A stretch of DNA of 64,000 nt from Macrostomum lignano (lineage: Eukaryota). The first letter of the stretch is position 1; every line of letters begins with the position of its first letter. Shown here piece by piece: positions 394 through 18,218 of the stretch. Below the pieces are notes generated by a model. That model made no database searches. It saw nothing but the letters and a program-made list of their open reading frames with translations, and had not been told where the DNA came from. The position numbers and the translations under genes are program-made. Location: positions 1-64,000 of the forward strand of contig NIVC01000209.1 in assembly GCA_002269645.1 (NCBI GenBank). The letters are read 5' to 3'.

Positions 394-510
394 AGTAGTA
401 AGCGTTTTTTACGCCATAGCTCGTTTTTACATGGCGAAATCAATAGGAAGTTCCAAGCACTAGTTCAATGGGGATACGTGCATAGCCTGTTTTTGCATAG
501 CAAAACTAAT
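394..510 (+). repeat. Left terminal inverted repeat of the Maverick
   Basis: Reverse complement of 18101-18218, with about 5 differences (1 indel, 4 substitutions) by eye. Confidence 0.95.
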
Positions 511-760
511 ACAAAGTTCTAGGTTATAGACGATGAATTTCCATCCTGCACAGGCGCGTTACCAAATCTCGTCCCGTCATGATCTTTCTAGCATCACTCT
601 TTCTTCTACATACGTGGTCGTTCAATGCTGCGACCGTTGTGTCACAGCCAAATAAAAAAGGCACATACACACGCATCGCTCTATTGCCACAATGCTTTTG
701 TGAATTAGTTCGTTTGTGATGAAAGCTTTTATATTTTTTGTCTGGATAAAAACTATCTGG

Positions 761-1385
761 TCAAGCTTGCATTAAAACAGTGAAACGCTCGCTTTTACCG
801 GCGGCGCAGTAGGGGTTGAAGAACATGCTTGAGAAAAAGCTCAGAGAGGAAAACGCGCGCGAGAAAGGGCTGCTGCGAGCCCGACCATGTTGTCGCATCA
901 CCCAGTGGATGAACGAATTTAGATCCTTTCCACTAGCAAGTTTAAAAAACAGATAGAACAGAATCCAGGCTCCACAGTGGGCGGTACGGGGATCCTGCAC
1001 CGCATAGCGCGTGTAACGCCAGTTTTTTGGATCTCCAAATTTCGGCTCATCCACTGGGAGATTTCAGGCAGCGGGTGCAAACCTAGCGGATCAAAGTATT
1101 CACCTATCCTAGCTCGTCTAACAGCGCCAATAGGGCCTGCACAGACCCAGACAGCAACCCAGTGTTTTCCGGGCAAATTGCTAGGGTCCGTGTTTACGAT
1201 GAAAAAATAGTTACGCGTGTCTTGAAAGTACGGACTCGTGTTTAGAGTAGGGATCGTTGGTAGAGAATTGCTTGGGTAAACTCCCATAAAAACTGCATCA
1301 GGATAAATACGCAATATTTTAGGCAGACCGAGCGCAAAAACACATTAGTTACGCCAGATAGAATAGTAGTGTTATCTACTTCCAT
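761..1385 (-). CDS. Adenain-like (C5) cysteine maturation protease, frameshifted
   Basis: FMGVYPSNSLP, IVNTDPSNLPGKHWVAV (His) and EYFDPLG (Asp) in ORF 919-1314; AVQDPRTAHCGAW (Gln/Cys) in ORF 761-1054. Probable ATG at 1385 overlaps the MCP end. Two frameshifts inferred. Confidence 0.88.
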
Positions 1386-2704
1386 ACAGATCCAGGTACC
1401 ACGCGCGGAACTCCGTCAAATGCAGCTGCTTGTCGAATAGTCCGCCCACGATGACGTTGTAGACTTTGTCCGTGGCAGTCGCGAAGCGTAGTTCCAATCG
1501 TACATTGCCCTCTTTATATACCTGTGCGCCAGCTCCGACACCCACCTCACTACCCAGTCCGAAGGCGTAGATAGTGTAGCCGGCTTTGTACTCTGCCATC
1601 GTGAACCCCAAGTCGCGGTTACGCAGATGCAACCCCAGCTGTTGCAAAAACCACCCGTACTCCAAAACGCAGTCCCCACTATCGCTGTAGTCGGTTTCGA
1701 GGGGTCTTGTGGCACCGGCTCCCCATTGACAAACACCCCCAAACTGCTCAGGTTGGCATGTTCGAATCTAAACGGGTTTGTGTCCACACTTCCATTGAAC
1801 GCTTTGTTGCTCACAAAGGCCAGAAGTAGAAGTTTCGGAACGCCGCTTGGGAAGAGATTTTCACGCGTGTAGCTAGACGTACCACTCGTAACAGTAAACG
1901 TGCTCATCTGTAGCTGATTTATTGGATAGATGGCATTGTGCTGTTTCAACCCCGCAGCGTGCGCAGCGAGTACACTCGGCGAGGGGGATACGTAGCGTAC
2001 ACGGAGCTCGGCCTTTAGCACCTCTATCTCGTAGCTCTTTAGCGGGTTTTCACCTATCGCACCGACCATGAGGGCGAAGGCAGCGGAAGACGGAATCAAT
2101 TTTATTTCGTACAGGAGTTTTAGACAACAGAAACCGCGGCTGGCGGCACATGTCCAAGAACAAGGGCCCCGATAAGCGCACTCTCGACCCCTGCTATCAA
2201 TGCGCGTCGGCGTTTAGCGCCAACGTTCGCGTCGCCGGCTGAATGCATTTGTCCAGCTGTGTCTTTGTAGAAACCCCAGGGCGTTAGACCACAGGTTTGA
2301 GCATCCGAACCATATTCTAAAAGCGTCAGTAGCATGGCTTTGTAGGGGTACATGAAGGTTCCGCCTTCGACTACAGTGTCTCCAATAGTTAGTTGTACAT
2401 CGCGGAACAGGCTCGCGATAGGCAAATTAGTCAGCGCTACGTTGTTCTTCGTCGCATCAGCGGTTACTCCGTCCGAGTCTCGTACACGTATGGCCAGATT
2501 TAGAATCGTCTCTTGTAGATCCAGGTAGAGTGCATCCCCTGCGGAGACGACTTCGAACTCGATTGGGGCACCTTTTGAGAGTCCGTGTTGCGGCTGAATG
2601 TGGGTATACTGGCTGTCCACTACACTGTACTGTACAGCGGCTGCATCAAAAAGGGCCAATTCGCTTTTTAGTACTACACTGTCAGGGCCAAGCAACTGGT
2701 TCAT
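1372..2704 (-). CDS. Major capsid protein (double jelly-roll, Polinton PY type), frameshifted
   Basis: Polinton MCP motifs SELALFD, LYLDL, MYPYKAMLLTLLEY, GFYKDTAG, AFNGSVDTNPFRFEH and GYTIYAF...GNVRLELRF, spread over ORFs 2120-2704, 1416-2099 and 1372-1665. Confidence 0.92.
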
Positions 2705-3162
2705 TTTCGGTTTTCAGGAGACTAAACAGCGATTTAGCAGCAACGGCCTTGCGATTCCGCTTTTTCTTCACCCTTCGTCGCTTCTTCTTGGTTAGACCCT
2801 TTCCTCGCTGGGTTTTTGCCGGTTTTCCACGAGTGCGAGCTTTCTTACCCCGTTTGCTTATAGTTTTCCGGGACGTTTTTTTCGGCTGCGTTTTGTGGGA
2901 ACAGCTGCGCTCGACATCTTGTAACCGCTCCCGTGTGCTTTCGTTTGCGATTAACGTTTGTTGTCTCGTTGCTAGTGCCTGATAGGTATTCCAAGCCCCG
3001 TGCCAAAAGATCCTTTCCCGCACTCCGCATAACCGGGATCAACACTCGATTAGAGAGGTTGGAAAGGAATCCATAGCCTTCGTAGATCGGAATCGCTCGG
3101 GCGGAGGATCCTCCCCCGCTTTGAGTGGGTCCAGAATAGAATCGGTATATTGGATCCATCAA
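2682..3162 (-). CDS. Basic Lys/Arg-rich putative virion core protein with QxGxG motifs, frameshifted
   Basis: MDPIYRFYSGPTQSGGG...IPIYEGYGFLS N-terminus, resembling the Polinton gene found directly upstream of MCP. Highly basic C-terminus (KTQRGKGLTKKKRRRVKKKR) in ORF 2682-3023. Confidence 0.65.
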
Positions 3163-3196
3163 ATTTTTAATTGTTATTATGTTCCCATTTCACAGT

Positions 3197-4407
3197 TTAC
3201 TTATAAACGCGCCGAAAAAGCCGTCGAGTTCGCTCATCCAACTCGCCTTCTTTCAACCACTGATTCCTAAAGGCCTCAACTCCTTGCCATTTCACTAAAT
3301 ACCGCCGCTGACCGTCTGAGTCTTTTCGTAAGCGTCTACACGCTCGATGACTGACGGCTCCGTACTTTCTTTTGCTACACGCTGTAGTTCTCCCTCATTG
3401 AAGTAACCCTCTAGTGTGCTATTTCCGTCTTCCGGATTCTCTAGTTTATACGACGCTGCTCGGCGAGGATTCGTAGCACGGATCCGAAACACGGTGTTGC
3501 TCCACACTGTCGAATAGCCCTTCTCGAAGGCACCCGCTGTCGTGCGATTCTTACCCAGTCCCTACCTTTAGTGTTGATAGAGGCTGCTGCGAGGCTTCAT
3601 GCTCTATAATCTCAGACCCGATGATTCCTTGTAGACGCGGATCCACCGCCGTGTTGTGAGGACTCTGACCAAACAGCGCCCGGTGAGGGCTTGAGTTCAA
3701 ATTTCGTTCCATTTGGGGTAGAATGTCATACCAGCGTTCTAGGTTTCGAGCCCGAAAATAACGGCTGAGCCGCTCGTTCAGAGTACGGATTAACCTTTCA
3801 GCGATCGCAGCCTTGTAATTGCTTTGGCTAACAAAAAAGCGTACACCCGCCCGTTTTAGTACAGCTTGAGTTTCACGCCCTAGGAACTCCTTTCCCGCGT
3901 CACCCTGAAGATAGAGAGGTCGGAAGCCTTCACGAAACAGATTTTCAAGTGCGGCGCCCACCTCTTTAGCAGTTTTTGTTCGTAGAGGTCGCAGACGTAC
4001 TTCGCGAGTGAAACAATCGATCAAAACGAGGATGTAGCGGTATCCCTTGTTTTCTGACTTGTATTGAGGGAGATCAGCCAGGTCGATTTGGAATTGAAAA
4101 CCAGGGATATGTGGTACACCAATTCTGCGGGTTTTGAATATTCGTTTAGTTTTGCGAAACAGGTTATATTCTTTGGTATCCCGGGCCCATTCGTCAACGA
4201 TTTCTGCCGCTCGTTTTGATCTAGTGACGGAAACTGGGTTTTAACATGTCTTAATAGCTGTTGCTTACTTCCCGCAAAAGCAGTAGGGCGGTCCAAATCG
4301 TAAAATTGTCTGTCTAAGAAGTTCTTGACGTCTAGCGAGTTGTTCAAACTAGTCCGTTCTTTTGCGTTTTCGGACAGCTGCCGGCTCTGGTGTTTCGCTT
4401 TTCGCAT
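3197..4407 (-). CDS. Retroviral-like (rve) integrase with C-terminal chromodomain, frameshifted
   Basis: FYDLDRPTAFAGS N-terminus. DDE core from reading across frames: QIDLADL...IDCFTR, LQGDAGKEF, KAAIAERLIRTL. FEKGYSTVWS follows. A third frame at 3197-3310 reads RRYLVKWQGVEAFRNQWLKEGEL (chromodomain-like), with TAA at 3197-3199. Confidence 0.92.
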
Positions 4408-4649
4408 CTGGAGGTCTCTTTTTCGCTGCCATCGGTTTTTGTATCGGTGATTCCTCCCGCACCGCTGCTCTGTGGCAAGTTATCAGTTGATGCAGAGCGC
4501 GTCACCGTCATGCAGCACCTAATGTTCTGTATGGTGATATCGCCCGCGTCGGGAGTGTCCTCGTTATGGTGGAGTGCCCCGCCTAAGCAGCCTTGCAAAA
4601 GTCTCACAACCAAATGAAAAACAAAGCGTAAAATTTCGCGTAGTTCCAT
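4344..4649 (-). CDS. Small orphan protein (101 aa) with hydrophobic N-terminus
   Basis: Intact ORF on the same strand as its neighbours, preceded by a TATAAGCTAA motif at 4693-4702. No family recognised. Confidence 0.5.
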   Translation of the reverse strand: MELREILRFVFHLVVRLLQGCLGGALHHNEDTPDAGDITIQNIRCCMTVTRSASTDNLPQSSGAGGITDTKTDGSEKETSRCEKRNTRAGSCPKTQKNGLV

Positions 4650-4727
4650 TATCAGAGTGTGTTGATACTCAATCCGCGATGCGTCCGACCAGTTAGCTTA
4701 TAGCTGCTACAATATTTAACTACAAAC

Positions 4728-5431
4728 TTAGCTTGTCAGTGTCTCGTAATTTTCTAGGAAATCCATTTCTTCGTCCCGTGTTTCTTTTCCTCGGTAAAGG
4801 CGGGTGGTAGCTCTTTCTCTGCTGCAGCTGACAATTCCGTTCGAAATTGTTTTCCGACAAGCTGAGGATCCGCTTTTCGTTGACGCAGGTAACTTAAAAA
4901 GTTTTCCAACCCGCCTGGCAGGCGCCCCATGCCTCTTCAGGGGTTTGTCGCGAACTACGTAGTCCATCAGATCGCGCATCTCCGTTTCGGTTAGTTCGGT
5001 GCCGTTTGCCGCAGATTTGCTTTCTCATTTTCGATGAAAGTTTTAAGACGTCGCCAACGTGCCTGAAGTGCTTTTGGAATGCGTGTTGTTTCGCTCTCTT
5101 CCTCCGCGCTATTGACTAACGGCTCTTCACTCGCTTGAGGGTTATCATCTGGCTTCAAAAACTGCTCGCGTGTTTGTAGGAGCTTGCTTTCCATTCTGTT
5201 TCTTGCCAGACGAGCAGGCGAATTCGGGGTAGATTGATCCGTAGCAATAATCTCGTCTAACCCATCGATTTTCTGTTTCATCCGCACGAGTTCTTGTCCC
5301 ATCGTGTCATTTGGCATCTCCAAAACCTTTGCTCGTTCGTCAGCGCACTTGTTTTGCGCGACCAGCTGCGAATATTCTGAGATGGGAATAACAACCATCT
5401 TTTGCAGTGCCTCGTGTGAGCGAGTTCCCAT
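4728..5431 (-). CDS. Conserved Polinton hypothetical protein, frameshifted
   Basis: KMVVIPISEY...IPKALQARWRRLKTFI and DLMDYVVR segments resemble, by recollection, a conserved uncharacterised Polinton gene. Lies in ORFs 4991-5515 and 4728-4979; start uncertain. Confidence 0.55.
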
Positions 5432-5435
5432 ATTT

Positions 5436-5888
5436 TCAGTTTCGTTTGTTCTGTATGCTGCGCACGAGACTAGCAGTACCCGCAGCTGTACCTGCAATGC
5501 CGGAGGTGATTCCAAGAGCCGTGGTGATGGATGGTAATGCTGCCGTTACTGCGGCCACAATCGGCGCGAGGAAAGGCAGAAAACCTCCGTGTTGTACAAT
5601 GATTCTTTTTTTCTCAGTCAGAGAATGACCACCCGAAATGAGCTTCTGAATAGGTCGACAATGTTTTTCTAATTTTTTCCGGTCCGCGTGGCGGAGTGGC
5701 ACTCGCTGCCGCACGATATTGATCAAGAACTCGACTATACAACGCACTTCTGCTAGACTGAGAGTCTTAAGGAAATCTCGTCTGGTTTTTCTATCACGCA
5801 GTCGAGCAACAATGTGCAGAATTTCCGCGCAGTTTGTGATCGAAGATGCACTCTTTCTCGCTTTTTGCGTTAATCGTCGTGCGGCCAT
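5436..5888 (-). CDS. Conserved Polinton protein with QHGGFL motif and hydrophobic C-terminal helix
   Basis: Intact 150-aa ORF. CIVEFLINIVRQRVPL...KKRIIVQHGGFLPFLAPIVAAV matches a Polinton structural-module gene I recognise (NVLKGNVPL...QxGGFL). Confidence 0.72.
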   Translation of the reverse strand: MAARRLTQKARKSASSITNCAEILHIVARLRDRKTRRDFLKTLSLAEVRCIVEFLINIVRQRVPLRHADRKKLEKHCRPIQKLISGGHSLTEKKRIIVQHGGFLPFLAPIVAAVTAALPSITTALGITSGIAGTAAGTASLVRSIQNKRN

Positions 5889-5939
5889 ATCCTACTCTCC
5901 TCACTCTATATTTAATGATGTGCTTGTTTGCTTATAAAT

Positions 5940-6945
5940 TTAGTCGGTTTTTTGGCGGAAATGCAGCACCACTACGCAATGTGCATCCGGCTGGAAAGTG
6001 AGAGGATTTCCCTGTTCGTCACCTAACCGAATGGTGATTTCGTCGATATTTTGCCGATTCGTTGGCAAATAGTAGGGATTTGTGATCATACCGTCTTGGG
6101 GCTGAAGTTGGCCCCCTGTTTGAGGGTGCAACGCCATAATCCGAGAAGGGGCACAAGGTGACTGCCAACCGCTTGGTATTCAATTATGTCAGTGTAGCAG
6201 TGCATGTAGACAGTCTTTCCCCGAACGATTTTTTCGCTGGGCGATGTTAGCGCTATGGCTCTAATCATCCAGGCCTTGTTCTTCTGCCAATACTTATCTA
6301 GCGCTCGGTCCCCCTCGCTCTTCCCAGGCGCCTGTCCCATTATCACCTCTGTACTACCAATTAGAGCTAAAGCTTCGCTTGGTCTCAGACGGAAATCGAA
6401 ATCAGGTCGGTTATGTATTCAGTTGAGCTTTTCGCTCTCTCGTAATAGCTTTTATAGCTTCCTTCCTCACCGATGAGTGGACTCCGAGTAAGAGATTCAA
6501 TGCTATGGAAATCACTATCCTTCCCACGCACTATTTTCCACTGATCGAAGCCATAGACACGCATGAAATGTAAGGTAAACGGATTGCTAATTGACTCGCG
6601 CCACCGTTTCGGAGATACCACAGGTACTGCCGCTCTTCCGGGCGACAAAGCAGATAGGCTTCCAGGTCGCCTCCCTGCCAAATTTTTGTCAAAGCAGCCT
6701 GCTTCACTGAAAGATGTGGACTAATATCAACCGAATAGGGCAATAACCCTGACCTATCGGAGGCAGCATAACCAATGTTTCCTATAGCACCTCTGCACAA
6801 AAGCTCGACTAAAGCGACCTCGTACGCGTTGCGGTCCCATAACGTCCGATAAGGTTCAGAGGATTTTTCAATCGCACACGAAACTCGTTTGGAGTGTTGG
6901 ATGGGTAGCTTTTGTCGTTTGAGGAAGAAAAACGTAGAAGCTCAT
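5940..6945 (-). CDS. Minor capsid protein (penton, single jelly-roll), several frameshifts
   Basis: ATG at 6945 gives MSFYVFLP..YPSNTPNEFRVRL...YEVALVEL. C-terminal YTDIIEYQAVGSHLVPLL...NPYYLP...IDEITIRLGDEQG...VVLHFR motifs are typical of Polinton mCP. Confidence 0.85.
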
Positions 6946-7011
6946 GTTTGTTTCCTTGGTGGCGATGGTTCAGTCTTGAAACAACATGGCTTGCTTATAA
7001 TCCAGGCGCCT

Positions 7012-7696
7012 TTAGTTCTCTGTTGCCAGGCCCACCATAGCTATCATCAGCTCTCCCGCAAACACGCCTGTTCGAAGTCGCAAGAAATCTGGCGTATCCT
7101 GACGCAAGTCGATAAGTAGATATGAGTACGGTTTTCCATCGGTTCGTCTTCGTAGACTTGGACGAGATAGTTACTTTTTTTTGGATACATCTGTTTCCCA
7201 AGATTCAAAACTGCGGTTCGATCTCGTACCGAGCGGGTTAAACAGATGTAGCTTGTAGATAAGCTTCTTGTTCGTGCCTCCGCGTCTGAACGGCTGAACA
7301 GATTCTGGCATAGGTATATGCAGTTTAATGGGAAATGGTGGGCGTGTTTGGTGAAGACAGCTGTGAAGTCGGCGGATTTAGCAATCTCACTTTGCAGATC
7401 GTCAACAACCAAAAGATCTCCCGATCGTAAGCTCCCAACAATGCGCCCGTAAAACCCCGAATAAAATGTATTCCTTCGGAGTTGCCCCAACAAGCCCGAA
7501 TTTTCCCGCGTTCCTGGTCATGAAGATCGGTCCCGTGACACCAGACTAGCCGTTGTGGTGGTTTCTTAAACATGGCTACTCTTTCTTTGATTAGACGCAA
7601 AACCCATTCTGTCTTCCCAGATATCGAAGGCCCCGCCACGATGATGGTTGAATCAGGCGCGAGGCGCAAATCGTAGATAGGCGGCTTTGTCTCCAT
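7012..7696 (-). CDS. A32/FtsK-like genome packaging ATPase, frameshifted
   Basis: Walker A VAGPSISGKT and Walker B LLVVDDL; FTKHAHH, YLCQNLF and PYSYLLIDL motifs. ORFs 7325-7696 and 7047-7493 plus a third frame ending TAA at 7012-7014. Confidence 0.92.
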
Positions 7697-7721
7697 GTAG
7701 CTCAGGCGCTCGCTTGTTGCT

Positions 7722-8137
7722 TTACTTGCATAACTTTGCTACAAATTTGGCGGCTAGTTTCTCACCCAAACCACTGCTTGGATCGTGGGCTATTTCTCGC
7801 GCGCCCTGTTCCAGCAAGCGGTCCGCTTCGAGACGGTCTTTCGTTTCAGAGTTCTTCTCGTAGGCCTTATCGTGCAGCATACACAGCCTATCTAACCTAT
7901 TTTTCCCGGTCTGGCCTTTGGCCAATCGTTCTTTCAACCTAGTACCCGGTCCACAGAATTGGTAGCCCGGAAGATGTAGTTCAAACGGCAAATGGTTAAT
8001 AACCAAATTTACAATACCACTTCCTCTCTGTAGTCGCTGATTCCGTTTTGCTCTACGGCTACTAGTAGTAGTAGTTCGAGATTTTTTTTAGTTTTTCTTG
8101 CGCTCTTTTTCAAGTGCCTGCTCTGGTCTCTTACCAT
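7722..8137 (-). CDS. Parvovirus-VP1u-type phospholipase A2 domain protein
   Basis: HLPGYQFCGPGT (Ca-binding loop) and LHDKAY (catalytic HD..Y), then DRLEAD. Basic N-terminal leader from ATG 8137 joins via one frameshift in the A/T homopolymer near 8082-8089. Confidence 0.85.
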
Positions 8138-8344
8138 TTTCTGCTAGTAATATTTTGAAGTCATAGCTCGTAGGGAAATTTGTTTTGCTTATACAATCTG
8201 TTGACTATTACGTCGATTGGTGGTAGCGTATATTTTGAAGTTGTTTAAAACAAGAGAATATTAGAGTTTGAGTTTGCGGTGCTAGCTACGTTTAGATTTG
8301 TTAGTGTCATCATTATCAGGTCCCATTACGCCGCGCAAAAGCGT

Positions 8345-8921
8345 TCAAATTCCGGTACTGCCCAATCCGCCCGTTCCGCGAATGCGCTTCGGCGGCTCGA
8401 TAGGTCCTTCGTTCTCTTCTTCATCGACGAGGACAGGGATGGTCTTGTCATCGTCGTTGACTAGTCCTCGTCGTGCGCCCTGGTCTTCACTTCTTCTCCT
8501 TCCTTTTTGCCAGGCCTGCCTGCACGATTAACAACAACAGATGGTGTAGCGACACGCTCCAAAACCAATTGAGCGATGCGGTCGCCAGGCTCGACCTTGA
8601 AGTCACAAGTCGAATGATTGAAAAGAATCACTTGCAGCTGTCCGATGTAGTCTGGGTCGATAACTCCGCCGCCGGCAACGATTCCGTAGCGCGCAGCCAG
8701 GCCTGAGCGAGAAGCAATTCGACCATACGTGCCGTCTGGAGATCGATACTTATTCCGGTATCGAGTACACACCAGCTTTGCGCAGTAATGGTTTTTTTCT
8801 CCAAGCTGGCTAGATCGTAGCCAACCGATCGCTCGGTCGCCCGTTGCGGAATCTTTGCTCCGGCTTCCTCCAAGAAGATTCGCAGCTCCTCGTCCACTGA
8901 AGAGCAGCCGGTCGAGTCCAT
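8345..8921 (-). CDS. dut: dUTPase, frameshifted, with extended linker before motif 5
   Basis: Motifs [24 protein letters not shown] and GDRIAQL in ORFs 8628-8921 and 8461-8772. Motif 5 [10 protein letters not shown] lies in another frame ending TGA at 8345-8347. Confidence 0.92.
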
Positions 8922-9279
8922 GTTGCGCAGTGTGCAGATAGAGCTGGAACAGAGATTGGGGTGAGGTGTTTGTTAGTTTCTTGTAGAGGTTTAAAATATC
9001 GTTTTCGCTTTACTTATAATGCTAAAGCCACCCAAGCTACTTCCCTCCTCGTATCTGCCGTAGAAAAACAAATTGACTAGGCCTCTAACAGTTTAGCAAG
9101 ATTAGTAGTAGACCAAGTTTTCGCTGTCGCTATATTTAGTCAAATCACGGCATAGCGCACACTCATCAACACTTGGTTTAAAAAAGTCAAAGCGATAGAT
9201 TAGTTCAACCGCCAGTGGCCGTAGGGTAGAGAGGCGAGCGCGCCCAGCCAAGCACGTTTCGTGTCGAAAGAGCTTAGGG

Positions 9280-12200
9280 CTAGCTTGCGATGCTCGAGCA
9301 AAAAGACAACTTGTTTTGCGAACTGAAGCGTCGCTGCTGAACGTAGTAGAGGCTTCTCTCGTTAACAGTTCTTACATACTCAGTATGCTTAATCTGTCGG
9401 GCAACCGTCTTCGTCACCCCCTTGCAGCGCGACAGTTGTTGCACAACTTCATTGGCCCTCAAAAAAGAGTAGTTCTTGGGCCGCAGAAACGCCAGCTCGA
9501 TAGCCAGCTGCCCGCCGAATTCATCCTTCCACGCCATCAGCCGACCCTTGTGTCTGTCAGAGTAGAGAGGATGGGTCTTCGGGTAGTTGCTGGTGTCCAA
9601 AAGGCCTTGCTGCACAAAGTCCTTAAAAATAGTGTCGTACGGGGTTTCTCCCGACTTGCGCATCACCAGGGCCATCATCAGGCTGTCGGTATCGCCAGCG
9701 AGGACGCGCGCGCACTCCAGAGAGCTGTGCGCCTGAACATGACTGTAATAAAAGTCATAGACAATTGTCTTAGCAATATCGAGAATTGCGGCGCCAATGA
9801 TGATCGGCTTGTTTAGCGTAACTTTTCTTGGAGCGAGATTAACTCCCGCGAGATTTTCAGAGTAGATTACAACATCTTGGAAGCGTTCCAACTGACCAGC
9901 GTCTCCAGCTTCTCTGGGTCGGAGCACATTCGAAAGTTCATCCGGTCGCGCACGCGCTGAAGAAACTTCCCGAAGAGCGAATTGTTGAGTAACTTAAAAA
10001 AATCTTTTTCGAAATCCCCCGTGGCCGCTTTCCGCCTCTCAATGTTGCGCTCGATGTAAGAGCGCAAGATCGAGCGTTCGGTGAAGACAAGCACTCGGCG
10101 AATTCGTGTCACGCGCAGTCCCAACTCCAGATAGAGGCGCAGAGCTCTGTAGTGCACCGCGTAGTTTTTTTGTGCACCAGCGAAGCGATTAGCTTTTTCG
10201 TAGGGCTTTTGAATGGGCTGACCTCCTCGTATGAGGTTGCGTTAGCGCTGCGATTTGGATTCATCTGCCGCTGTAGTAGTAGCCAGTCTTGTCGCTGAGT
10301 TCTTGTCAGCCGGCTCTCAGTCACAGTTTCGTGACCTAAAGCCAAGGGCAAATCATCAGCAGTGGAGTCGTGCAGAAAATTTGGATAGTAGAGATCCACC
10401 GTGAACAGGGCGCCCCGGTCTGCCGAACAGAAATTACAAATCCAGTCCAGCAGCTTGCTCCTCACTGATGGATCCTCGAGTTCATCGGCGGACAGTCCAT
10501 TGTCGCACGGAACGGACCGGATTTCTTGCAAAGTCATCCACTTGAAATCAGCACAAGGCATGGGATGAACCATGCATGCTGAATAGAGTGAATTGGCATC
10601 CAGATAAACAAGAAAAGTGTTTGCCGGAGCGTTTTTCCGCAACTGCACAAACTCCGGTTCTTTCTCGTCAAGCTGGCAGCGGAAAGGTTCTACAAGCGGA
10701 TTGTTTGCAGTGGTCAGGTGCCGTGTACCAAAACTGAAGCCGCCACGGTACATGTCCGCATCAGTGACTAACTGAATAGGCTCCTGAAGAGTTAGTAGGC
10801 AGCTGGCGAGGCTGTACATTGGCGCGCCCAAATAGTGGGCCGGGTCAATGCTGTATTCCTCCAGGCCGGTTTTACGGAAAGCCTCGAACACATCCGCCAG
10901 AAGCAGCACGTCCAAAGACAGGTATGCTGTTGTGTAGTCCCGCAGGCTGCGGCAACCGAATTCTTGCCAGCTTTTTTCGGCCCGGGCGTAGTCCTCGAGC
11001 GAGCAGGGCTCCTCTCTCAGGTGGTCAAAAAACGCCTCTCTGGGTGGGAGACGCGTAACTGAATCCATTTTCTCAAAAGAATCCGCAAATGAGTACGGAT
11101 AGACTCCTTTTTGCAACAGAGTCGTTTCGCTCAGGCCTGGATAGAACTTTAGAAGCTCCTTTGTACAGATGAGTTGATCTGGTTGAAGACGTCCTGCCAG
11201 GCTCGCCAGGCTTGACGGTAAATAGGCAAATGTGTCTTTGAAACAAATTTCAAACCACGCCTCGTCAATGCCGTCCGTGCTGGTGCTGCCTCCCTGCAGT
11301 CGAAACTTAATGGAAAATGTCTTAAACTGCTCACGGTTTTCCGGCAAGACATTCAGCCGAATGTCCTTGCTGGTGCCCGAGAAAGTCTCGTAGATCTCTC
11401 GAATGATAAATTTCGAATCGAAATTTTTCAGGTTATGCATAAAAACTGTTATTTTTCGGCGTTGTAAACTTAGTTTTCGATTGCAAGAGCGGCATAAAAC
11501 AGCACGAGGACGGCCTGTCAAATGACAGTGGTCCAAAACAGCTTGATCTTCTTCTTCTCCGGGTCCGAACTCCCGCAGACACAACTGGCAATTTGTCGCT
11601 GCCTCCAGCACTAGTCTTCGTGCGGGAAGAAACTTTCTCATCAGTGGTTTGTGGAGTTCTAGCCGTCCATAGTGCATGATTTCCGAAGCTAGTTGGCGTA
11701 ATTTTAGAAGAAACTGGCTCACGCAATTGGGCCCGACCGAGCACGGACTAGAATACAGCACCTCACACGGCTTTCCAGCACAATATGAAGGCAGCTTGCT
11801 TTTGAAGTCTTGCGGCTGGGTAACCAATCTGTAGCCCAGGCAGAGTGGTACGAGTACTTCTCGTACAATGCCGCTACCGAGTTTGGGAACCGGGTGACCG
11901 GCCGCAGCCGCCTGTTCCGGACTCATTGCAATCGTTTCTAGATCTGAATAAATAACAAATAAAGCAGGTAGTCGCGTCTCATCGGCTGTGAAGCGCACAA
12001 AAGCCTCCTCTTGAGCTGGCATTTCTTCACGCGAAACAAAGCGGATCTCGCGGAACTGACCCTCTGGTTCAGACTGCCATACACAGCCCCTTGGTTGAGC
12101 TGCAGGCTCGGTTGGAGGCACGGACGTGCCAGTACAGCAGTGCTCGTTCAAGATGAAGTCCCAGGACACAGTGTGATTAAATGGCGCTAAACAGTCGGGA

Positions 12201-12981
12201 CAGAAACGCCGTCGTCGCGTGTTAGAACTTAGCAGGCTTTGCAAATTCTTGATTGCAATTGCATAGTGCCCAAACTTGAAGCTTGAATAAGGTGGTATGA
12301 ACAGGCAATTTGCCGTGTAGATAGCTTCTGGTGTTTTTTTCGAAAAAACAAGCTAGCAGATTTGCTTTCGTGATCCCAGACAAACATGCGTAAGCCAAGA
12401 GTGGGATTTTTTCTCAGAAACTTGTTGTAGCTGTGTGCATTGTGCCGTTTAGGACCGGATGGATTTCGACCGAAATCGAAAACTTGCAACCATCGCTTGT
12501 AGCTGGCTCGTCTAGCCGGTCGGGGCACATCTTTTTGAAAGACGCTTGCTACTACAGCATAGCAAAAACAATCCTGCTGGTTCGCATTGTTGGGTTTTAG
12601 AAGCAGCACAGATCCAGCTTTTCTCGCCAGTGACAGCGGAATTTTGAAAGGTGTGGCCGCCGCCGCCGCCGCCGCCGCCGCGGGTGTTCCAGCTCCTGCA
12701 CCGCGCTGTACAGACGCTCTCGCACGAGAGCGTCTGTACAGGGCGAGTAAAAAATCAACCTGTTCCACCGCCTCGAGATGCCAATTGCTGCCTTGTTTTT
12801 GAAAATTTTCCAGTCGAGTGACAAGATCACCAACAGCGCGCAAAAACCACTGGTTAAAGGCGTCGGGCGAAAGAAGAGCTCCAGCAGCAGCAGCAGCAGC
12901 AGACTCTTCGTCAATTGTTATCGTAACGATATTGGTATTGAAATAAACTGAAATCTCCTGTTGTTGCAGCGGTGGCTGGTC

Positions 12982-13014
<33 letters not shown>

Positions 13015-13287
13015 TGGGATCAGACGACTTAGCTTACACTTTAAATGAATGCAAGTTCGCATTAGTAGATCTGGCTGCAGTAACCTGCTGAAAAGTCTGT
13101 AGATCGGCTGCTGAAGTGAAGCGAGCACCTCAGAGATCCCGTTGTTGCTGTTGTTGTTGCCAGTGCCGCCAGCAGTGGGAATAAATTTTAGAAAATTAGC
13201 TCTTCCATGCAGCGCTGATTCTTCCAGAGCCGCATTCCAGCCACTAGGCGGATCGCTAATCAACGAGTTGACTGGCTCGCGAATCAA
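9280..13287 (-). CDS. pPolB: Protein-primed family B DNA polymerase with N-terminal terminal-protein region and EndoVII-like Zn module, frameshifted
   Basis: ExoI YSDLET, ExoII HNLKNFD, KGVYPY, ExoIII YLSLDVLLLADVF; Pol motifs YLDANSLY, KLLNNSLFGK, GDTDS; DHCHLTG...LCRSCN. Four ORFs: 12229-13287, 10109-12244, 9867-10157, 9280-9927. Confidence 0.95.
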
Positions 13288-13904
13288 CGATTCCAGAGGG
13301 TGAAAACAAGCACCGTGCGAATGCGCATGCAGTGCTGCCTAGGTTCCGAATCGTTTGCCGCAAACGCGGCACTGAATCCGTGCCGATTTCGTTGGCGAAT
13401 GCGCTGCAGTGCCAGCTCCGGGTTGATTTCAAGGTACACCAGGGTGCAATCCTCTCGAGGTGTAACTGTCTTTGTCTTCTTTTCTAAGACCTGCAGCTGA
13501 TTAACGAGAATTGCTTGCTGGGTACCATTCAAACGCCCTTGATGTTTTAGATGCGTTAAAAATGCATAGCAGCTGCCCAGGTGTCGGTCTGCCACAATAA
13601 ACCGATGCGTGCCTTTTGTAGCGATTTTGCGGAGCTTCATGTCGCGTCTCGCCATCTCGTGCGACACATGGACTTGAAATTCAAAAGCAGACACGTCACC
13701 ATCGTAAAACTGCTGCAGCAGATTTTGCTCCGTGTAACGGTGCTTTCGGTAGTATTCCGCCGGCTCCCGAGCAAACTCGTACCCTCCACTCCAGCATTCC
13801 AGGCGAGCCATCAGAGCCAGATTGCGGACAAGGGAAGATTTTCCGGCCCCGATTAGACCTTCGATCACGTAAGTTCGAGTCTGAGCACGGACTTGAGCGG
13901 CCAT
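13284..13904 (-). CDS. Deoxynucleoside kinase (dNK/TK2-dGK family)
   Basis: P-loop IEGLIGAGKS, REP, FEFQ, IVADRH...CYAF, and VYLEINPELALQRIRQRNR (Arg-rich lid). The C-terminus may be truncated. Confidence 0.88.
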   Translation of the reverse strand: MAAQVRAQTRTYVIEGLIGAGKSSLVRNLALMARLECWSGGYEFAREPAEYYRKHRYTEQNLLQQFYDGDVSAFEFQVHVSHEMARRDMKLRKIATKGTHRFIVADRHLGSCYAFLTHLKHQGRLNGTQQAILVNQLQVLEKKTKTVTPREDCTLVYLEINPELALQRIRQRNRHGFSAAFAANDSEPRQHCMRIRTVLVFTLWNR

Positions 13905-13920
13905 TTGCTGAAGTGAATAA

Positions 13921-14514
13921 TTAGACAGCTGCTTGGGGCAAATGTTGAAAAACCTCCAACACTTGCTTCAGTTCCTCGAGATTTTGAGGACCACAGACTA
14001 TAAATTTCCGACTAAAGAACAGGTTCAGGAACAGCCTCGGGTTGCATTGAAGCCTGCAGGAGATTGCCATAGGGAAATTTTCCTTATCCATGCTTAAACA
14101 ATAGCCGCTCTCCAACTTCAGTGTAGTGGTATCCGAAAACAGGGACTCCAGGAGCGGAGTGCGGACAGATGAATCTAGGCTTCCCGCATAAGTACTTGTC
14201 TGCACACACACAGACTCATAGTCTAAACCACCGATGCATAACTCGTTTATGAAGCACAGGCACCTTACTGCTTGGATTTTAGATTTAGCACCAAAAATTG
14301 TTACTTTCCCTTTGGGATACAGCTGAACAGAACAGCCACAAAAGCGGGTTTTAAGCATCGAAGGACGCCCACGATAGAGTTTCGCCTCCCGTCCGGTAGA
14401 AATTAGCTTAGACTTTAACAGATCCAGCTGCCCGCCTGGTGGAATGACTAGTCGAGCCCCCACAACATGTTGCAGCAGTCTCTGGAAGAGACAAGGAACA
14501 AGAAACAAACACAT
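13921..14514 (-). CDS. Divergent TATA-box-binding-protein (TBP)-like protein, intact 197 aa
   Basis: Two TBP repeats aligned by eye. Repeat 1: LQHVVG..QLDL..VQLYPKGKVTIFGAKS (cf. IQNIVA..LDL..ALIFASGKMVVTGAKS). Repeat 2: VQTSTYAG..DKENFPMAI..LNLFFSRKFIVCGPQNLEELKQVLE (cf. IQNIVGS..EPELFPGLI..LLIFVSGKIVLTGAKQREEI). Confidence 0.8.
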   Translation of the reverse strand: MCLFLVPCLFQRLLQHVVGARLVIPPGGQLDLLKSKLISTGREAKLYRGRPSMLKTRFCGCSVQLYPKGKVTIFGAKSKIQAVRCLCFINELCIGGLDYESVCVQTSTYAGSLDSSVRTPLLESLFSDTTTLKLESGYCLSMDKENFPMAISCRLQCNPRLFLNLFFSRKFIVCGPQNLEELKQVLEVFQHLPQAAV

Positions 14515-14725
14515 TTCTTAATTTCTTTTTAATCAATGAGATGTTACACGTTTATTTAACTTGTACTTCAACTTCAAATTTTGGTTAAAAACTAGCTAGC
14601 TAGCGCATAGCTTTTCTGACTAACTAGCGAAGCAAAAATCAATGGTCAAGCTAGGACCATGACAATAGTTAATTTTCTTGGGTTTGACGAAGTCACTAAA
14701 GCGTCCGCTCTAAGCTGGTGCTTTT

Positions 14726-15893
14726 TCAGGTGAAAGCGCCAAAGGGCGGCGACGAATCGCGGACCTCCACTAGGTCATCAGTTTGCTCCTCCGAGTCGTC
14801 AGAAGAAGCTGAAACCGGGCTCTGTGGAGGTCGCATTCTTGGCTTTGTGGGCGCTTTTCGCCCAGACGGACCACTCACAAGTTGCTTTACCGGCGGCTTG
14901 CAGGCCTCCATGAGGTCCTGCGCAATCGCTTCAACGATATTAGAGTCCGAGCTGGCAGCAGCATCAGCCTTCCGCTTGCGAATCCGCGGCAACTTCTTCG
15001 GCGGCGGCATCGTCCTCGGCGCATCAGCAGCAGCAGTCGATACATTTGACTTGTTTGGCTCCCGGCTGGCGGACTCGGGCACTGCGGCTCGCGGGCCATT
15101 GTTGTCCCTCTTGGCCAGGCGTAAACCTTCCATTTGGCGGGAGACTATGCGGAACATCTGCATGTCATGCACGCCTTCCATCAGCGCGGCAGAGCGAAGG
15201 GTGAATAACACCTTCCACTTGTCGTTGGCACGAGGGCGGATTAAGCAAGCTGCCTGGAAGGTTAAATGATACAGTCCCGACCGATCGAACAACTCCGGCA
15301 GCTGAGCCTCGTAGTAAATCTTGTGCGTCAGATCCGCTAAGAATGTCGCACAGGCAACATTTGCACGCAGGCCGAGCCAGCTGGGCGGGGCTGTTGTTCC
15401 GTCCTCCGGAATCTTTGCCTGGCGCACGAGTCCATGAGTGTCCCTCTGAGCCGTTAAAATTGCCTCAATCATTTTTTCGGCCGTTCTGAAAAGCAAGCGA
15501 CAGAGTTCCAAAATTGAAAAAAGTGGTTCAAAAATTAAGGAAAAGATAGTTACGTATTACAAATAACTTTAATTACCTGATGCATTCGAATGTGGTTTCA
15601 CAGAACGTTTTTGTTGCGAATGTGACACTCATGCCCTCTCGGCGCCACAGCTCCGAGCCGCTGTCCGGACTGTGGCCTTCATTTCGGGTGATGCCGCGAA
15701 AGACCTCTACCGGCTTTGTGGTCTGAAAAACGAGCGGCAGCAGCTCCCGGCATGTAGAACTGGGTCTCCAGGCCAGAGTTCGCAGTCCGTTTTCGTGTTT
15801 GTTCCACTTTTCTGCCTTGCCGAAGATAATTGCGGCATCCTTGCATTCGAGGGCCTCCTTCGAGACAATCGCAGCTTCAGGGAAGAACGCCAT
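14726..15893 (-). CDS. Two-exon orphan gene (~358 aa) with basic NLS-like segment
   Basis: Exon 1 is 15893-15577, followed by an AT-rich 91-nt intron 15576-15486 (AG|GTAATT ... TTTTCAG), then exon 2 at 15485-14726. Splicing joins both ORFs in frame (ECI-R-TAEKM). PKKLPRIRKRK motif; TATATAAG at 15940-15949. Confidence 0.68.
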
Positions 15894-16407
15894 CTCGGTC
15901 AGCCAGGTCGTTGTTGCTAGGCGGCTGTGGGACTAGTCCCTTATATAAGCCTCAGCAAATGGCATGCAGCTGTAGCCCGGATGAAAAAAACAACATTCCG
16001 CATGCTTTTACCAAAATGTCAAAGGGACAACCCGCGCCCAGATTTTTTCAAGTTTTGCATGCAAGTAGCAAGACGATAGTTTTTTCATTTTGATGGCGAA
16101 TGACAGTTGGTCTTCTAAATCCTGTAAATAGCAATGGCCTACTAATGAAAAGGGGGATGATAAATGTAGTCAAAGCTGAAACAGTTGGTGCCAAGGCTGA
16201 AAATGCCACTAGGGGAACTGTGTCAGCTGTTGTGTAACTCTGTTGTGAAGAATAAAGACGGTAAATATAGCCAATCCTAAACAAAGAACTTCACTTTCGA
16301 TATAAGCTTAGACGGCAAGGGAGCTGTATCCGAGAGGATACACTCTAAAAAGCGCAATCTCTATTGTATAGCAGTATCAATATAACTTCTTAAATTTTGT
16401 TTGAGTT

Positions 16408-17290
16408 ATGAGCGAGAATCTACATCATTTCGGACGCGCTGCTGAAGCTGTTAACGACCCTAGAGGGGCCGTTCGCGTTCGCGAAATGGACACCATATAG
16501 ATACTTTATATTTTAATAGTTCGTCGCAATTTCCGGAGTTTGACGAGTTTTCGGATGCCGACTACTTAAATGAACTATGCCGGATCCCTGAAGAGGGTAA
16601 GTTTGGTACCTGCTTGGTTATGTTTTAATTTATCCTCATTGAAATAAACATCTAGTGTTGCGACTTTCCTCCGCAGATGCCATCAGTCCTGAACCGCAGG
16701 GTGATCATGGACGCTGGGCACCGTGGACGTGGGTGTCGAGTGCGTGGACGTGGGCGAGGGCCCTGTGGAGTAATGGCGCTGCGGGCGGAGACAGCGATGT
16801 TGAATCTAGCCTTCAAAGTGATTCTGGCGAGAATGTTCGACCGGCCCCTGCGATGCTAGAGTCTCCCGTCCTGGGCGAGGGTGCCGTGGGCGGTGGAAGC
16901 GCTGTGCAATCCGACTTGGAAAGCGAGCCTTCTAGACCAAGCGAGAGCGTCGCGGGGGGCGGCAGCCATCGTGAGATTGGCTCCGTCGAGGCTCGTGTTT
17001 GTCGACAGTCACGGGATGGACCTAGCCGGAGCGAAGGCGCTATGAGCGGCGACAATCCTCGCTGGTACCCATTTCTTAACCATCGTCACGCATCTCACGT
17101 CTACGCCCGACATCGCCCTCTTGATGGGCGCGGGCATGGACGGGTGCGTAGTAACGGCGAGAATTGGGTAATCATCGCCGAAGAGCCTTCGCTTTATGGT
17201 CCATTGCGCATACTAGTTAGAGAGAATATGCCTGGTCCGCCTATTCGACGGGCGAGTTTTGACTCGGACTCGGGCCTCTGTGAATTTTAA
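16408..17290 (+). CDS. Two-exon acidic, disordered orphan gene, the only clear + strand gene of the element
   Basis: ORF 16655-17290 has an acceptor (TTCCTCCGCAG at 16676) and an upstream donor (G|GTAAGT at 16597). The phase-1 join gives QFPEFDEFSDADYLNELCRIPEE-DAISPEP. Reaching ATG 16408 needs one 2-nt correction near 16497. AATAAA at 17387. Confidence 0.55.
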
Positions 17291-18100
17291 GCATTGTGTT
17301 TACGCGCCCGCCTAATAACTAATAACGTTACAGCCGTTACAGAGAATGCAAGCCCGTTGCATTGAGCATGTGTGAATGTATGTGAAAATAAATATTAATC
17401 GTTTCAGTGTTACTTCAATGCGTTTATAATATTTGTGCTGGGGGCGGGGGTGATAAGGAAAAGTCGTAAAACCCACTGACTGCGAGAGGATGGGCTAGTG
17501 GATGAGAACGAGCCTCTAGCCAAAGAAGACGAAACGGACTAGCTGCAGTTACGACAAAACGCTTAGAAGGAATGGAATGATGCGAAAACTTGTAATTTTT
17601 GAACAAACTGGTATAGGGCGGGTGTGAGAGGCGAGCCTGGAAAAAGAAAGAAATCCAGATTTAAGACAAACCATACTAAGCTTATTTTTTCCATCTGCGG
17701 ATCAGTGCTAGTGCAACACGGTCTGAATTGGGAGGTGTTTGGTATTGGGACTTCAGCGTGGAGGCAAACATAACTGATGCAGGGTGGCAGTGACTAGTCC
17801 TAATAGCAAATTGTTTCTGAAGATGCGCATGAACATTGAAAAGACTTCCAGAAACCCCAAGTTCTGTTGTGCTATCAGAACAAAAAAGAATCAGTTGAAG
17901 CAGAATTTCCCAGCTCCCGAACACGCGCGCCTTTAGCGAAAGCGTCGAACCACATCACTATAGCAAAGCAAAAGTTAGGAATCTAGGAGAGAGTGGCCGC
18001 GAGCCTAGCAATAAAGTGGTTGGGAAAAGTGGTGGGGACGAGATTAGGCAAACGCGCCTGGGTAGGATAGAAATTCATCGTCTAGTGGCTGGGACTTCCT

Positions 18101-18218
18101 ATTGGTTTTGCTATGCAAAAACAGGCTATGCGTGTATCCCCATTGAACTAGTGCTTGGAACTTCCCATTGATTTCGCCATGTAAAAACGAGCTATGGGCG
18201 TAAAAAACGCTTACTACT
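18101..18218 (-). repeat. Right terminal inverted repeat of the Maverick
   Basis: Reverse complement of 394-510; followed by the TSD TATGTT. Confidence 0.95.

Follow-up and report, generated by a model that had tools for sequence, protein, structure and literature searches.

The locus described here raises the question of whether the structural genes of a Maverick are transcribed from a promoter of their own and, if so, which TBP reads it. The window, a 64,000-nucleotide stretch of the Macrostomum lignano contig NIVC01000209.1, contains a Maverick element, and a sequence-only reading had proposed that a TATAAG motif shared by six of its genes is an element-specific late promoter, possibly recognized by a TBP-like protein that the element encodes. 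What stands of this proposal is a private box, located at TATA distance and only before genes of the structural module, and a protein with a genuine TBP fold; that the one reads the other is argued below at its own strength.

The element and its genes

The features that define the element and its early block are as follows.

394..18218, strand not assigned, Maverick/Polinton element with AGTAGT termini, terminal inverted repeats (TIRs) and a 6-bp target-site duplication (TSD), TATGTT
9280..13062, minus strand, protein-primed DNA polymerase B (pPolB) region with an endonuclease VII-like insert, early block, boxless
13284..13904, minus strand, deoxynucleoside kinase gene, early block, boxless

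TIRs that begin AGT and a 6-bp TSD identify the element as a Maverick/Polinton, as do pPolB (PF03175, E 8e-14), which is broken across several frames in the window copy, and a retroviral-type integrase (PF00665 and a chromodomain on the L032 orthologue). The packaging ATPase, whose gene directly follows the PLA2-like gene (ATG 8137), and the protease drew matches on orthologues to Pox_A32 (E 0.0036) and Peptidase_C5 (E 0.033), both below the cut-off. The putative major capsid and penton proteins gave no Pfam match and no significant PHROG match, and their names come from how long they are (~440 and 330 aa), where their genes lie and how conserved they are, all read from the sequences. The TIRs, 6-bp TSD, pPolB, integrase, ATPase, protease, PLA2-like and pX-like genes are those of Mavericks, Polintons and adintoviruses (PMC8502044, bioRxiv 697771); in these two reports TBP is named in figure legends only and the word 'promoter' is absent.

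A box at the TATA position before structural-module genes

Seven boxes lie on the minus strand of the window copy, with distances counted from the first T of the box to the A of the ATG.

9009..9018, minus strand, TATAAGTAAA box 97 nt upstream of the dUTPase ATG 8921; perfect in 2 of 5 subfamilies, the least conserved junction
8184..8193, minus strand, TATAAGCAAA box 56 nt upstream of the PLA2-like gene ATG 8137; perfect in 4 of 5 subfamilies
6990..6999, minus strand, TATAAGCAAG box 54 nt upstream of the putative penton ATG 6945, a name given from gene position; 5 of 5 subfamilies
5927..5936, minus strand, TATAAGCAAA box 48 nt upstream of the adenovirus pX-like core protein ATG 5888; 5 of 5
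4693..4702, minus strand, TATAAGCTAA box 53 nt upstream of the ATG 4649 of a small cysteine-containing ORF that precedes the integrase; 4 of 5
3196..3205, minus strand, TATAAGTAAA box 46 nt upstream of the ATG 3159 of a putative core gene, provisionally named pVII-like; 4 of 5
2853..2862, minus strand, seventh box, TATAAGCAAA, within the pVII-like ORF 3159 and 158 nt upstream of the putative major capsid ATG 2704; 5 of 5

The sequence-only reading had listed the first six of these 10-mers, all of which are real and lie where it placed them; counted from the first T, the distances to the ATG are 46, 53, 48, 54, 56 and 97 nt in order from box 3196..3205 to box 9009..9018, the ATG given as 3162 is at 3159, and the reading had overlooked the seventh box, at 2862-2853. 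Two further sites that it regarded as related do not belong to the set. The first, 15940-15949, is the canonical TATA box TATATAAG (15947-15940) of the first early gene, while 16301-16310 was excluded because its TATAAG is on the plus strand, opposite to the set, where no fitting ORF follows: the first plus-strand ORF to reach 30 aa begins 107 nt further on and has just 30 aa. Ahead of the protease gene, three of the five subfamilies have a candidate eighth site (TATAAGGAAG); it encodes Leu-Tyr-Lys-Glu-Gly, has been lost synonymously in two subfamilies, including that of the window, and is considered unproven.

The motif is enriched over chance. On the element TATAAG[CT].A occurs seven times on the minus strand and never on the plus strand; Markov simulations of order 1-3 (150 runs each) averaged 0.27-0.33 occurrences and never exceeded 3. 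As this pattern was picked after the sites were known, the stronger evidence is the orthologue test, in which the late gene block of five divergent subfamilies (42.1 kb) contained 37 sense and 0 antisense copies of TATAAG[CT]. No single-base variant approached these counts, with 10 sense versus 6 antisense copies for the largest; TATAAA[CT] was present in 3 sense and 7 antisense copies, and the early halves were devoid of sense TATAAG[CT] sites in all six examined. The box is conserved in related, TBP-bearing Mavericks, with a perfect site at 29 of 35 orthologous junctions and a one-mismatch site 38-75 nt upstream at four of the other six. Within the box TATA is required at positions 1-4, position 7 is C or T in all 29 curated sites (C in 24), and the G at position 6, by definition of the set, departs from canonical TATAWAWR. 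Box and ATG are separated by 41-61 nt in 22 of the 24 curated non-MCP sites, and never by less than 41 nt, which fits the spacing of a TATA box. No initiator or upstream element was apparent, as outside +1 to +10 no position exceeded about 0.5 bit in the 29 sites.

The codons of the seventh box are always NNT-ATA-AGC in the five subfamilies, with unconserved flanking residues, a codon choice with a probability of about 4e-10 provided that the lineages are independent; in loci L008, L009 and L019 this box is TATAAA. Counting against the late-promoter reading, the ATPase, PZ and protease genes are mostly boxless, and the dUTPase and integrase-adjacent genes bear the box despite being non-capsid. 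Collectively, these sequence data support the view that TATAAG(C/T)(A/T)A is a promoter box at the TATA position before structural-module genes; that the boxed genes are late we infer from their identity.

A canonical TATA box at the early gene and a TBP-like exon

The remaining features upstream of the structural module are as follows.

15940..15947, minus strand, canonical TATA box TATATAAG, 54 nt upstream of the first early gene
14726..15893, minus strand, early two-exon gene with an intron at 15576-15486
14482..14878, minus strand, predicted alternative intron with donor 14878 and acceptor 14483-14482; its removal would fuse the TBP-like exon in frame with the early gene
13921..14481, minus strand, TBP-like exon of 186 codons, without its own start codon at the homologous N-terminus

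A TATAWAWR box is found at the first early gene in all six loci examined. Contigs of runs X1, X2 and X5 have the intron at 15576-15486 spliced out, and those of X16 do not. An orthologue of the early protein scored 0.85 in the ESM Atlas to DUF2738/DUF5871/Pox_I3 clusters and the product is possibly a single-strand DNA-binding protein, which we treat as a lead only; Pfam, PHROGs and a profile comparison with the early gene of lineage N1/N4 were uninformative as to its identity.

The TBP-like exon is predicted to adopt the two-lobe TBP saddle (pLDDT 92.6, Foldseek E 2e-9, TM about 0.7; a single-sequence fold with pLDDT 41 was discarded), its profile matches to TBPs in the PDB span both lobes, and dN/dS values of 0.07-0.36 in all seven unsaturated pairs indicate purifying selection. 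Its nearest Atlas clusters are Nucleocytoviricota TBPs, and its viral fold matches are mostly TBPs of giant viruses. No relative was found in viral_contigs or by word search, and among 108 profile hits only four were close homologues, two of which have a Gln immediately before the first aligned residue, consistent with an acceptor CAG. In sequence alignments, based on a contact-residue numbering that we take to be the standard one, the host TBP retains the usual DNA-contact residues and the clade TBP has Q, T, T/S, T and N at five of these positions, such that its DNA face is more polar than that of the host protein. The clade TBP retains a Phe-Pro pair and an acidic stirrup; in place of four intercalating Phe and a standard minor-groove surface it has at best two Phe, one Tyr and one position aligned, with some uncertainty, to Pro.

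The sequence predicts that splicing joins the TBP-like exon to the early gene with the canonical TATA, so that the TBP would be produced as a fusion. The phase-0 donor and acceptor of the alternative intron are conserved in all six loci, and the intron includes an AATAAA at 14556-14551; the fusion junction was missing from the listed joints in contigs of three RNA-like runs. A spliced-leader start for the TBP exon was also considered, and was placed behind the conserved cis donor.

Four boxes in one genome

A TBP-like gene was present in all Maverick lineages sampled, including those chosen as presumed TBP-less controls. Each lineage has its own box (sense:antisense counts).

window clade, TATAAG[CT], 37:0
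lineage N1/N4, TATAAATA (canonical), 24:0
lineage N5, [CT]TTAAGAA, 48:2
lineage N2, [CT]ATAAGAA, 8:0

The highest off-diagonal count in the box-by-lineage table is 5, and the spacing to the ATG of the N1/N4 and N5 boxes is mostly like that of the window clade. A TAAG core is common to the boxes of the window clade, N2 and N5. That four boxes go with different TBP lineages in a single host lends further support, at the level of sequence, to the proposal. The table covers three or four lineages, N2 and N5 are sisters and kin share labels, so that co-evolution of box and TBP would be no more than a possibility here.

Two residue patterns were noted alongside, both anecdotal and both fitting three or four lineages: G6 goes with a small hydroxyl residue at position V122, and T1 with a Pro at position P191. 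N1/N4, which has T1 without Pro at the P191 position, runs counter to the second.

Which factor reads the box?

We consider it probable that, in one Maverick clade, the box serves the late genes of the structural module as core promoter and is read mainly by the element TBP with host RNA polymerase II. It could be argued that host TBP/TFIID alone reads the box as a deliberately weak TATA, one that needs an activator or prior amplification of the genome, and that the element TBP has another role, such as that of a decoy or one in replication. According to the titles of PDB entries 1QN5 and 1QN3, crystals exist of wild-type TBP with the G(-26) and C(-25) variants of the adenovirus major late TATA box, so host-type TBP binds TATAAG variants and tolerates each deviation singly. 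Consistent with this reading, N1/N4 has a canonical box despite the most divergent TBP, and the clade TBP has at best two of the four intercalating Phe and a Tyr. Nor was an element TFIIB found: a search with PF00382 gave 16 matches, none at the listed Maverick positions, although a very divergent form could escape it. A single host TBP, however, would not account for the presence in this genome of four boxes that are almost exclusive to their lineages; CTTAAGAA differs from TATAWAWR at three positions, and TATAAA variants are unused at these junctions. In a small control limited to histone H3 loci, TATAAG was absent from all six TATA-bearing sequences among 17 distinct host H3 upstream regions. 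On balance we view unaided host TBP as unlikely.

Quite improbable is reading of the box by the transcription machinery of a helper virus, in the style of virophage promoters. Virophages and polinton-like viruses have motifs that are shared with their giant-virus helpers and are thought to be read by the helper polymerase, and these resemble the Maverick box in being short and in standing, at a fixed distance, ahead of most genes in a small element with a capsid; the predominance of giant-virus TBPs among the viral fold matches points the same way. The Maverick box, in contrast, is at TATA distance in an element that brings its own TBP and whose spliced intron and canonical TATA point to nuclear Pol II, and several boxes would demand several helpers.

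The baculovirus late promoter, (A/G/T)TAAG, in which transcription starts inside the motif and is carried out by a viral polymerase, was suggested by the sequence-only reading as an analogue, and a TAAG core ahead of structural genes is indeed common to three of the boxes. This analogy now appears less probable still, because the spacing is TATA-like, as for the canonical TATAAATA of a sister lineage, and a Pfam scan of 20 element ORFs detected no RNA polymerase subunit family; clade sites are never closer than 41 nt to the ATG, TATA is required at positions 1-4 and the gene content does not fit. Least probable of all is that the box arises as a by-product of coding sequence or belongs to the upstream gene, as a signal linked to its 3' end or stop codon, for although 16 of 23 sites lie -15 to +11 nt from the upstream stop and the integrase site reads TAT AAG TAA (box 3196..3205 overlapping the integrase stop codon in orthologues), six of seven long-spacer sites (38-380 nt from the stop) are still 43-61 nt from the following ATG, sites occur outside genes or in differing frames, as do the orthologues of box 6990..6999 within the upstream ATPase gene, and the capsid-gene site is mid-ORF.

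Discussion

Recognition of a variant TATA box by an element-encoded TBP would have a precedent in the beta- and gammaherpesviruses, where viral TBP mimics such as KSHV ORF24 act on TATT late promoters (PMC6541308, PMC12529657). The likeness comprises a nuclear DNA element without its own polymerase, a minimal late promoter in which one or two bases of TATA are changed (about 30 bp before the start in herpesvirus), and a protein that has the TBP fold, retains a Pro and intercalating aromatics, and presents a more polar face to DNA (PMC6541308, PMC12529657). In both systems a TBP-fold factor is encoded and a variant box is limited to late genes, 'late' in the Maverick being read from gene identity. 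The boxes themselves differ, TATTWAA in herpesvirus and TATAAG[CT] here. Unlike ORF24, the Maverick TBP is a bare 186-codon two-lobe exon with a predicted splice fusion to the early protein. In contrast to the six-member herpesvirus complex, no pre-initiation-complex partners of the herpesvirus type were named by Pfam scans of the element ORFs. The acidic TFIIB stirrup is present in the Maverick TBP and absent from ORF24 (PMC6541308, PMC12529657).

A second comparison is with the Nucleocytoviricota. In that group the viral TBP is likewise two-lobed, and members with a TBP mostly encode TFIIB as well (PMC7221094). In the Maverick, by contrast, neither TFIIB, sought with PF00382, nor RNA polymerase, sought among 20 ORFs, was found, and transcription is spliced. 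Nucleocytoviricota with a TBP mostly encode their own RNA polymerase.

Under the preferred reading, that the element TBP is the main reader, a cascade can be proposed in which host TBP would fire the canonical TATA at 15947 to give a spliced early mRNA. Alternative splicing from the tail of the early gene, with the poly(A) signal skipped, would then yield the early-protein/TBP fusion. The element TBP would prefer TATAAG(C/T) and probably recruit host TFIIB, and each of six or seven separate promoters would then start transcription roughly 30 nt beyond its box. In this cascade the binding, the use of host TFIIB, the start sites, their timing and the fusion splice are inferred steps. Together with the pairing of other boxes and other TBP variants in the other lineages of this genome, the box and the element TBP suggest a built-in, herpesvirus-like late-gene switch. 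More tentatively, and with considerable doubt, the lineages may possess private, mutually orthogonal TBP-promoter codes, in which TBPs have co-evolved with their own TATA variants so that no element could activate or exploit the capsid genes of another resident in the same genome, the TBP in two lineages being fused by alternative splicing to a single-strand DNA-binding protein. If true, such a fusion would couple late transcription to replicating genomes.

The fixed box positions tell where start sites should be sought, and the four pairs of TBP and box that occur naturally in this genome form a small testable matrix for shifts in TBP sequence preference. The finding bears on how Mavericks express their capsid genes and on their need for a helper virus. 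A conserved early/late promoter split in an element that also encodes a TBP argues that these 18 kb run an autonomous viral programme in the nucleus, one that would be convergent with herpesvirus TBP mimicry.

The Maverick and its putative late-gene box

The Maverick of this window has the following extent:

394-18218, Maverick element, AGTAGT at both ends, with inverted repeats and a 6-bp flanking duplication

Nearly all of its genes lie on the - strand. Read from the right end, they comprise a two-exon early gene (15893), a TBP-like exon, deoxynucleoside kinase (dNK), pPolB and dUTPase, followed by a PLA2-like gene, ATPase, putative penton, pX-like core protein, PZ-like gene and small ORF, and then by integrase, putative pVII-like core protein, putative major capsid protein (MCP) and protease. 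Pfam and PHROGs gave no name for the penton, MCP, pVII and PZ genes, which we take to be such from position and size. Several reading frames are interrupted in this copy; the interruptions probably reflect assembly errors or are unique to it, because many of these one-base differences are absent from short-read contigs, those of sequencing run X16 included, and the frames stay open for longer in related copies. At 10109-12022 (- strand) pPolB contains a domain resembling endonuclease VII (PF02945, E 8e-8), and the + strand has, close to the right end, a 145-aa ORF without a family match (16853-17290). Beyond the element, several host genes resembling SLC26 anion transporters, their introns full of minisatellites (19002-55360), and a RhoGAP-like ORF (35207-38185) were recognised by eye.

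The six TATAAG 10-mers that the sequence-only reading had located on the - strand are all where it placed them, and there is a seventh site, at 2862, within the pVII-like ORF and 158 nt upstream of the MCP ATG. Enrichment over background was borne out: TATAAG[CT].A occurs seven times on the - strand of the element and never on the + strand, against simulated means of ~0.3 (maximum 3 in 150 runs, for each of three Markov orders), and the stricter TATAAG[CT][AT]A is absent from the 45.8-kb host sequence right of the element. Of two further sites that had been called related, the one at 15947-15940 proves to be a canonical TATATAAG, and the one at 16301 lies on the + strand and has no fitting ORF.

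Conservation and spacing of the box

The genome holds many related elements, with 79 TBP-like matches at 27-100% identity. Five subfamilies sharing the box (the window clade) were compared through one representative each (loci L068, L032, L067, L062 and L043), near-duplicates L035 and L063-L066 being excluded from box counts. The MCPs of the four other subfamilies share 67-70% identity with the window's; in the TBP gene, synonymous sites were saturated in each of the three pairs tested between subfamilies (among A, B, C and G). Across the five blocks of presumed late, structural-module genes (42.1 kb) TATAAG[CT] occurs 37 times in sense and never in antisense orientation, none of its 18 single-base variants is similarly strand-biased (largest 10 vs 6), and in the early halves (n=6) its sense count is zero. 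Seven genes in five subfamilies give 35 orthologous junctions, 29 of them with a perfect site (all five subfamilies at penton, pX and MCP, only two of five at dUTPase); the other eight sense sites are five tandem-duplicated in L067 and three inside ORFs. Position 7 is a pyrimidine (C or T) in 29/29 sites, among which no conserved sequence was found outside positions 1-10.

The box tracks the start codon: the distance to the ATG is 41-61 nt for 22 of 24 non-MCP sites, with a minimum of 41. Because the genes are tightly packed, 16/23 sites are also found within -15 to +11 nt of an upstream stop codon, which counts against start-codon tracking, but 43-61 nt to the ATG is retained by six of the seven sites with a long spacer. 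A TATA box lies ~30 nt upstream of the transcription start, and the ~41-nt floor fits such a box followed by a presumed short leader. The mid-ORF MCP site always reads NNT-ATA-AGC while the surrounding residues differ in the five subfamilies (a codon usage with a probability of ~4e-10, assuming that the five lineages are independent), so it is the DNA that is constrained. TATAAG[CT] is very probably a real, selected promoter box.

The copies also vary in structure. In subfamily C a tandem duplication gives four to six boxes upstream of the PLA2-like gene (L035:2112-2283, L067:2194-2472). ORFs similar to both dNK and pPolB occur in subfamilies B, C and E (varying fusions at L031, L034, L038 and L042), and subfamily G has one 418-aa TBP-dNK frame, the fusion patterns differing by subfamily. 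In L040, L046/L047 and L048, internal deletions have left early genes fused to a portion of the capsid gene, with nothing in between, and these copies are probably non-autonomous. Module exchange between subfamilies D and E (L036/L038 versus L062/L063) is suggested because capsid and integrase are nearly identical (dS ~0.07) but the TBP genes divergent (dS ~1.6), late-block and TBP loci coming from different contigs.

Early gene and predicted TBP fusion

The early gene carries a TATAWAWR box at 6/6 loci. Its intron (15576-15486) is spliced out in contigs of three RNA-like runs (X1, X2 and X5, two studies) and unspliced in X16, and this splicing indicates nuclear Pol II transcription. At all six loci TBP homology starts in phase 0, without an ATG, immediately downstream of a pyrimidine tract plus YAG, and the early gene's low-complexity tail has a phase-0 donor at one shared L|VS position; donor words in early-gene exons are in phase 0 in 7/7 cases, vs 9/16 in 17.5 kb of other ORFs. 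The predicted intron is:

14878-14482, - strand, 397 nt, which would skip AATAAA at 14556

This junction was absent among the joints listed from RNA contigs, and one X2 contig ends at 14542, a weak hint of use of the nearby AATAAA. By inspection, the distant N1/N4 lineage has the same lay-out. In two distant Maverick lineages (the window's and L054/L050/L128/L129), an early-protein/TBP fusion is therefore predicted from conserved splice signals. One lead, an Atlas score of 0.85 with low recognition, is that the early protein could be a single-strand DNA-binding protein.

Which TBP may read the box

A profile of eight clade sequences matches TBPs of known structure across both lobes (best E 1e-8), the structure model (pLDDT 92.6) matches TBP at E 2e-9, and dN/dS of the gene is 0.07-0.36 in all seven unsaturated pairs. 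Sequence alignment shows the standard DNA contacts in host TBP, and in clade TBP a retained Phe-Pro pair, second C-lobe Phe and acidic stirrup. Yeast L114, V122, N159, V161 and L205 presumably correspond to Gln, Thr, Thr/Ser, Thr and Asn in clade TBP, and F116 to Tyr, by sequence-only mapping. Most of the 150 scored PF00352 matches in the genome are repeated Maverick TBP-like genes, not host TBP or TRF2-like, as judged from the loci fetched.

The element-specific late promoter of the sequence-only reading, possibly read by the encoded TBP-like protein, is upheld in the box's restriction to the late block, its conservation and the TBP fold; that the element's own TBP reads it is somewhat favoured. 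A point against this reading is that several late genes have no box; these must depend on shared mRNAs or on other promoters. A further point against is that titles of PDB entries report crystals of wild-type TBP on G(-26) and C(-25) TATA variants, as would suit reading by host TBP alone; however, among 17 distinct host H3 upstream regions, a small control, six have a TATA-like word and none TATAAG, and we consider host TBP alone unlikely. A PF00382 search found no element TFIIB, so the likely partner of the element TBP is host TFIIB.

Boxes of other lineages

Distant lineages (MCP 32-36% identical) were fetched as TBP-less controls, but every one carries its own TBP-like gene. Unbiased 7-mer counts ranked a TATA-like word first in four of five element sets and third in the other. 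Own-box sense:antisense counts are 37:0 for the window clade, 24:0 for N1/N4 (TATAAATA), 48:2 for N5 ([CT]TTAAGAA) and 8:0 for N2 ([CT]ATAAGAA), off-diagonal counts being 0-5 in a table of 8/20 loci picked for unbroken late blocks, where copies within a lineage are related and counts not independent. Many sites lie 41-62 nt upstream of an ATG; N5 and N2 each have one 140-149 nt upstream of a downstream ORF, as at the window clade's MCP site, and N1/N4 and N5 a single TATATAAG upstream of a non-structural gene (PC4-like in N5). The TBP tree groups the window clade with four relatives (93/92) and N2 with N5 (99/94), N1/N4 forming a long branch. Private TBP-box pairs would produce such a box-by-lineage pattern, three or four lineages being too few to test co-evolution; the canonical box of N1/N4 counts against such pairs.

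The TBP gene of N5 (L057:4097-4663, L112:7431-8000, others) has its own ATG, with the lineage box CTTAAGAAG 65-83 nt upstream, within an overlapping upstream ORF itself preceded by TATAAGAAG or TTTAAGAAG; positive autoregulation is possible. At L054:3311-4090 (N4) a Fic-domain gene (PF02661) has an ATAAATA-type box upstream.

Relation to known systems

Our literature searches, which covered main texts outside supplements, subscription papers and repeat databases (where TBP annotation may exist), found no paper on a Maverick TBP-promoter system, and TATAAG was not found in the papers checked for that word. In the accessible text of two Maverick papers (PMC8502044, bioRxiv 697771) TBP is named in figure legends only; that of PMC11161782, bioRxiv 2026.10.13.758929 and bioRxiv 2023.08.22.554363 lacks the terms TBP, TATA and promoter, and that of PMC11296320 the terms promoter, motif, TAAG and TATA. 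Viral TBPs are documented in large DNA viruses, nearly always alongside viral TFIIB (excerpts of PMC7221094). KSHV ORF24 has a polar-rich DNA face, retains the Pro and lacks the TFIIB-binding acids (excerpts of PMC12529657); clade TBP shares the polar face and kept Pro but retains the acidic stirrup. The herpesvirus vTBP reads a modified TATA (TATT) ~30 bp upstream of late starts (excerpts of PMC6541308). With a different motif and no partner complex found, the late promoter of the window's Maverick is not a member of that system but is proposed to work alike.
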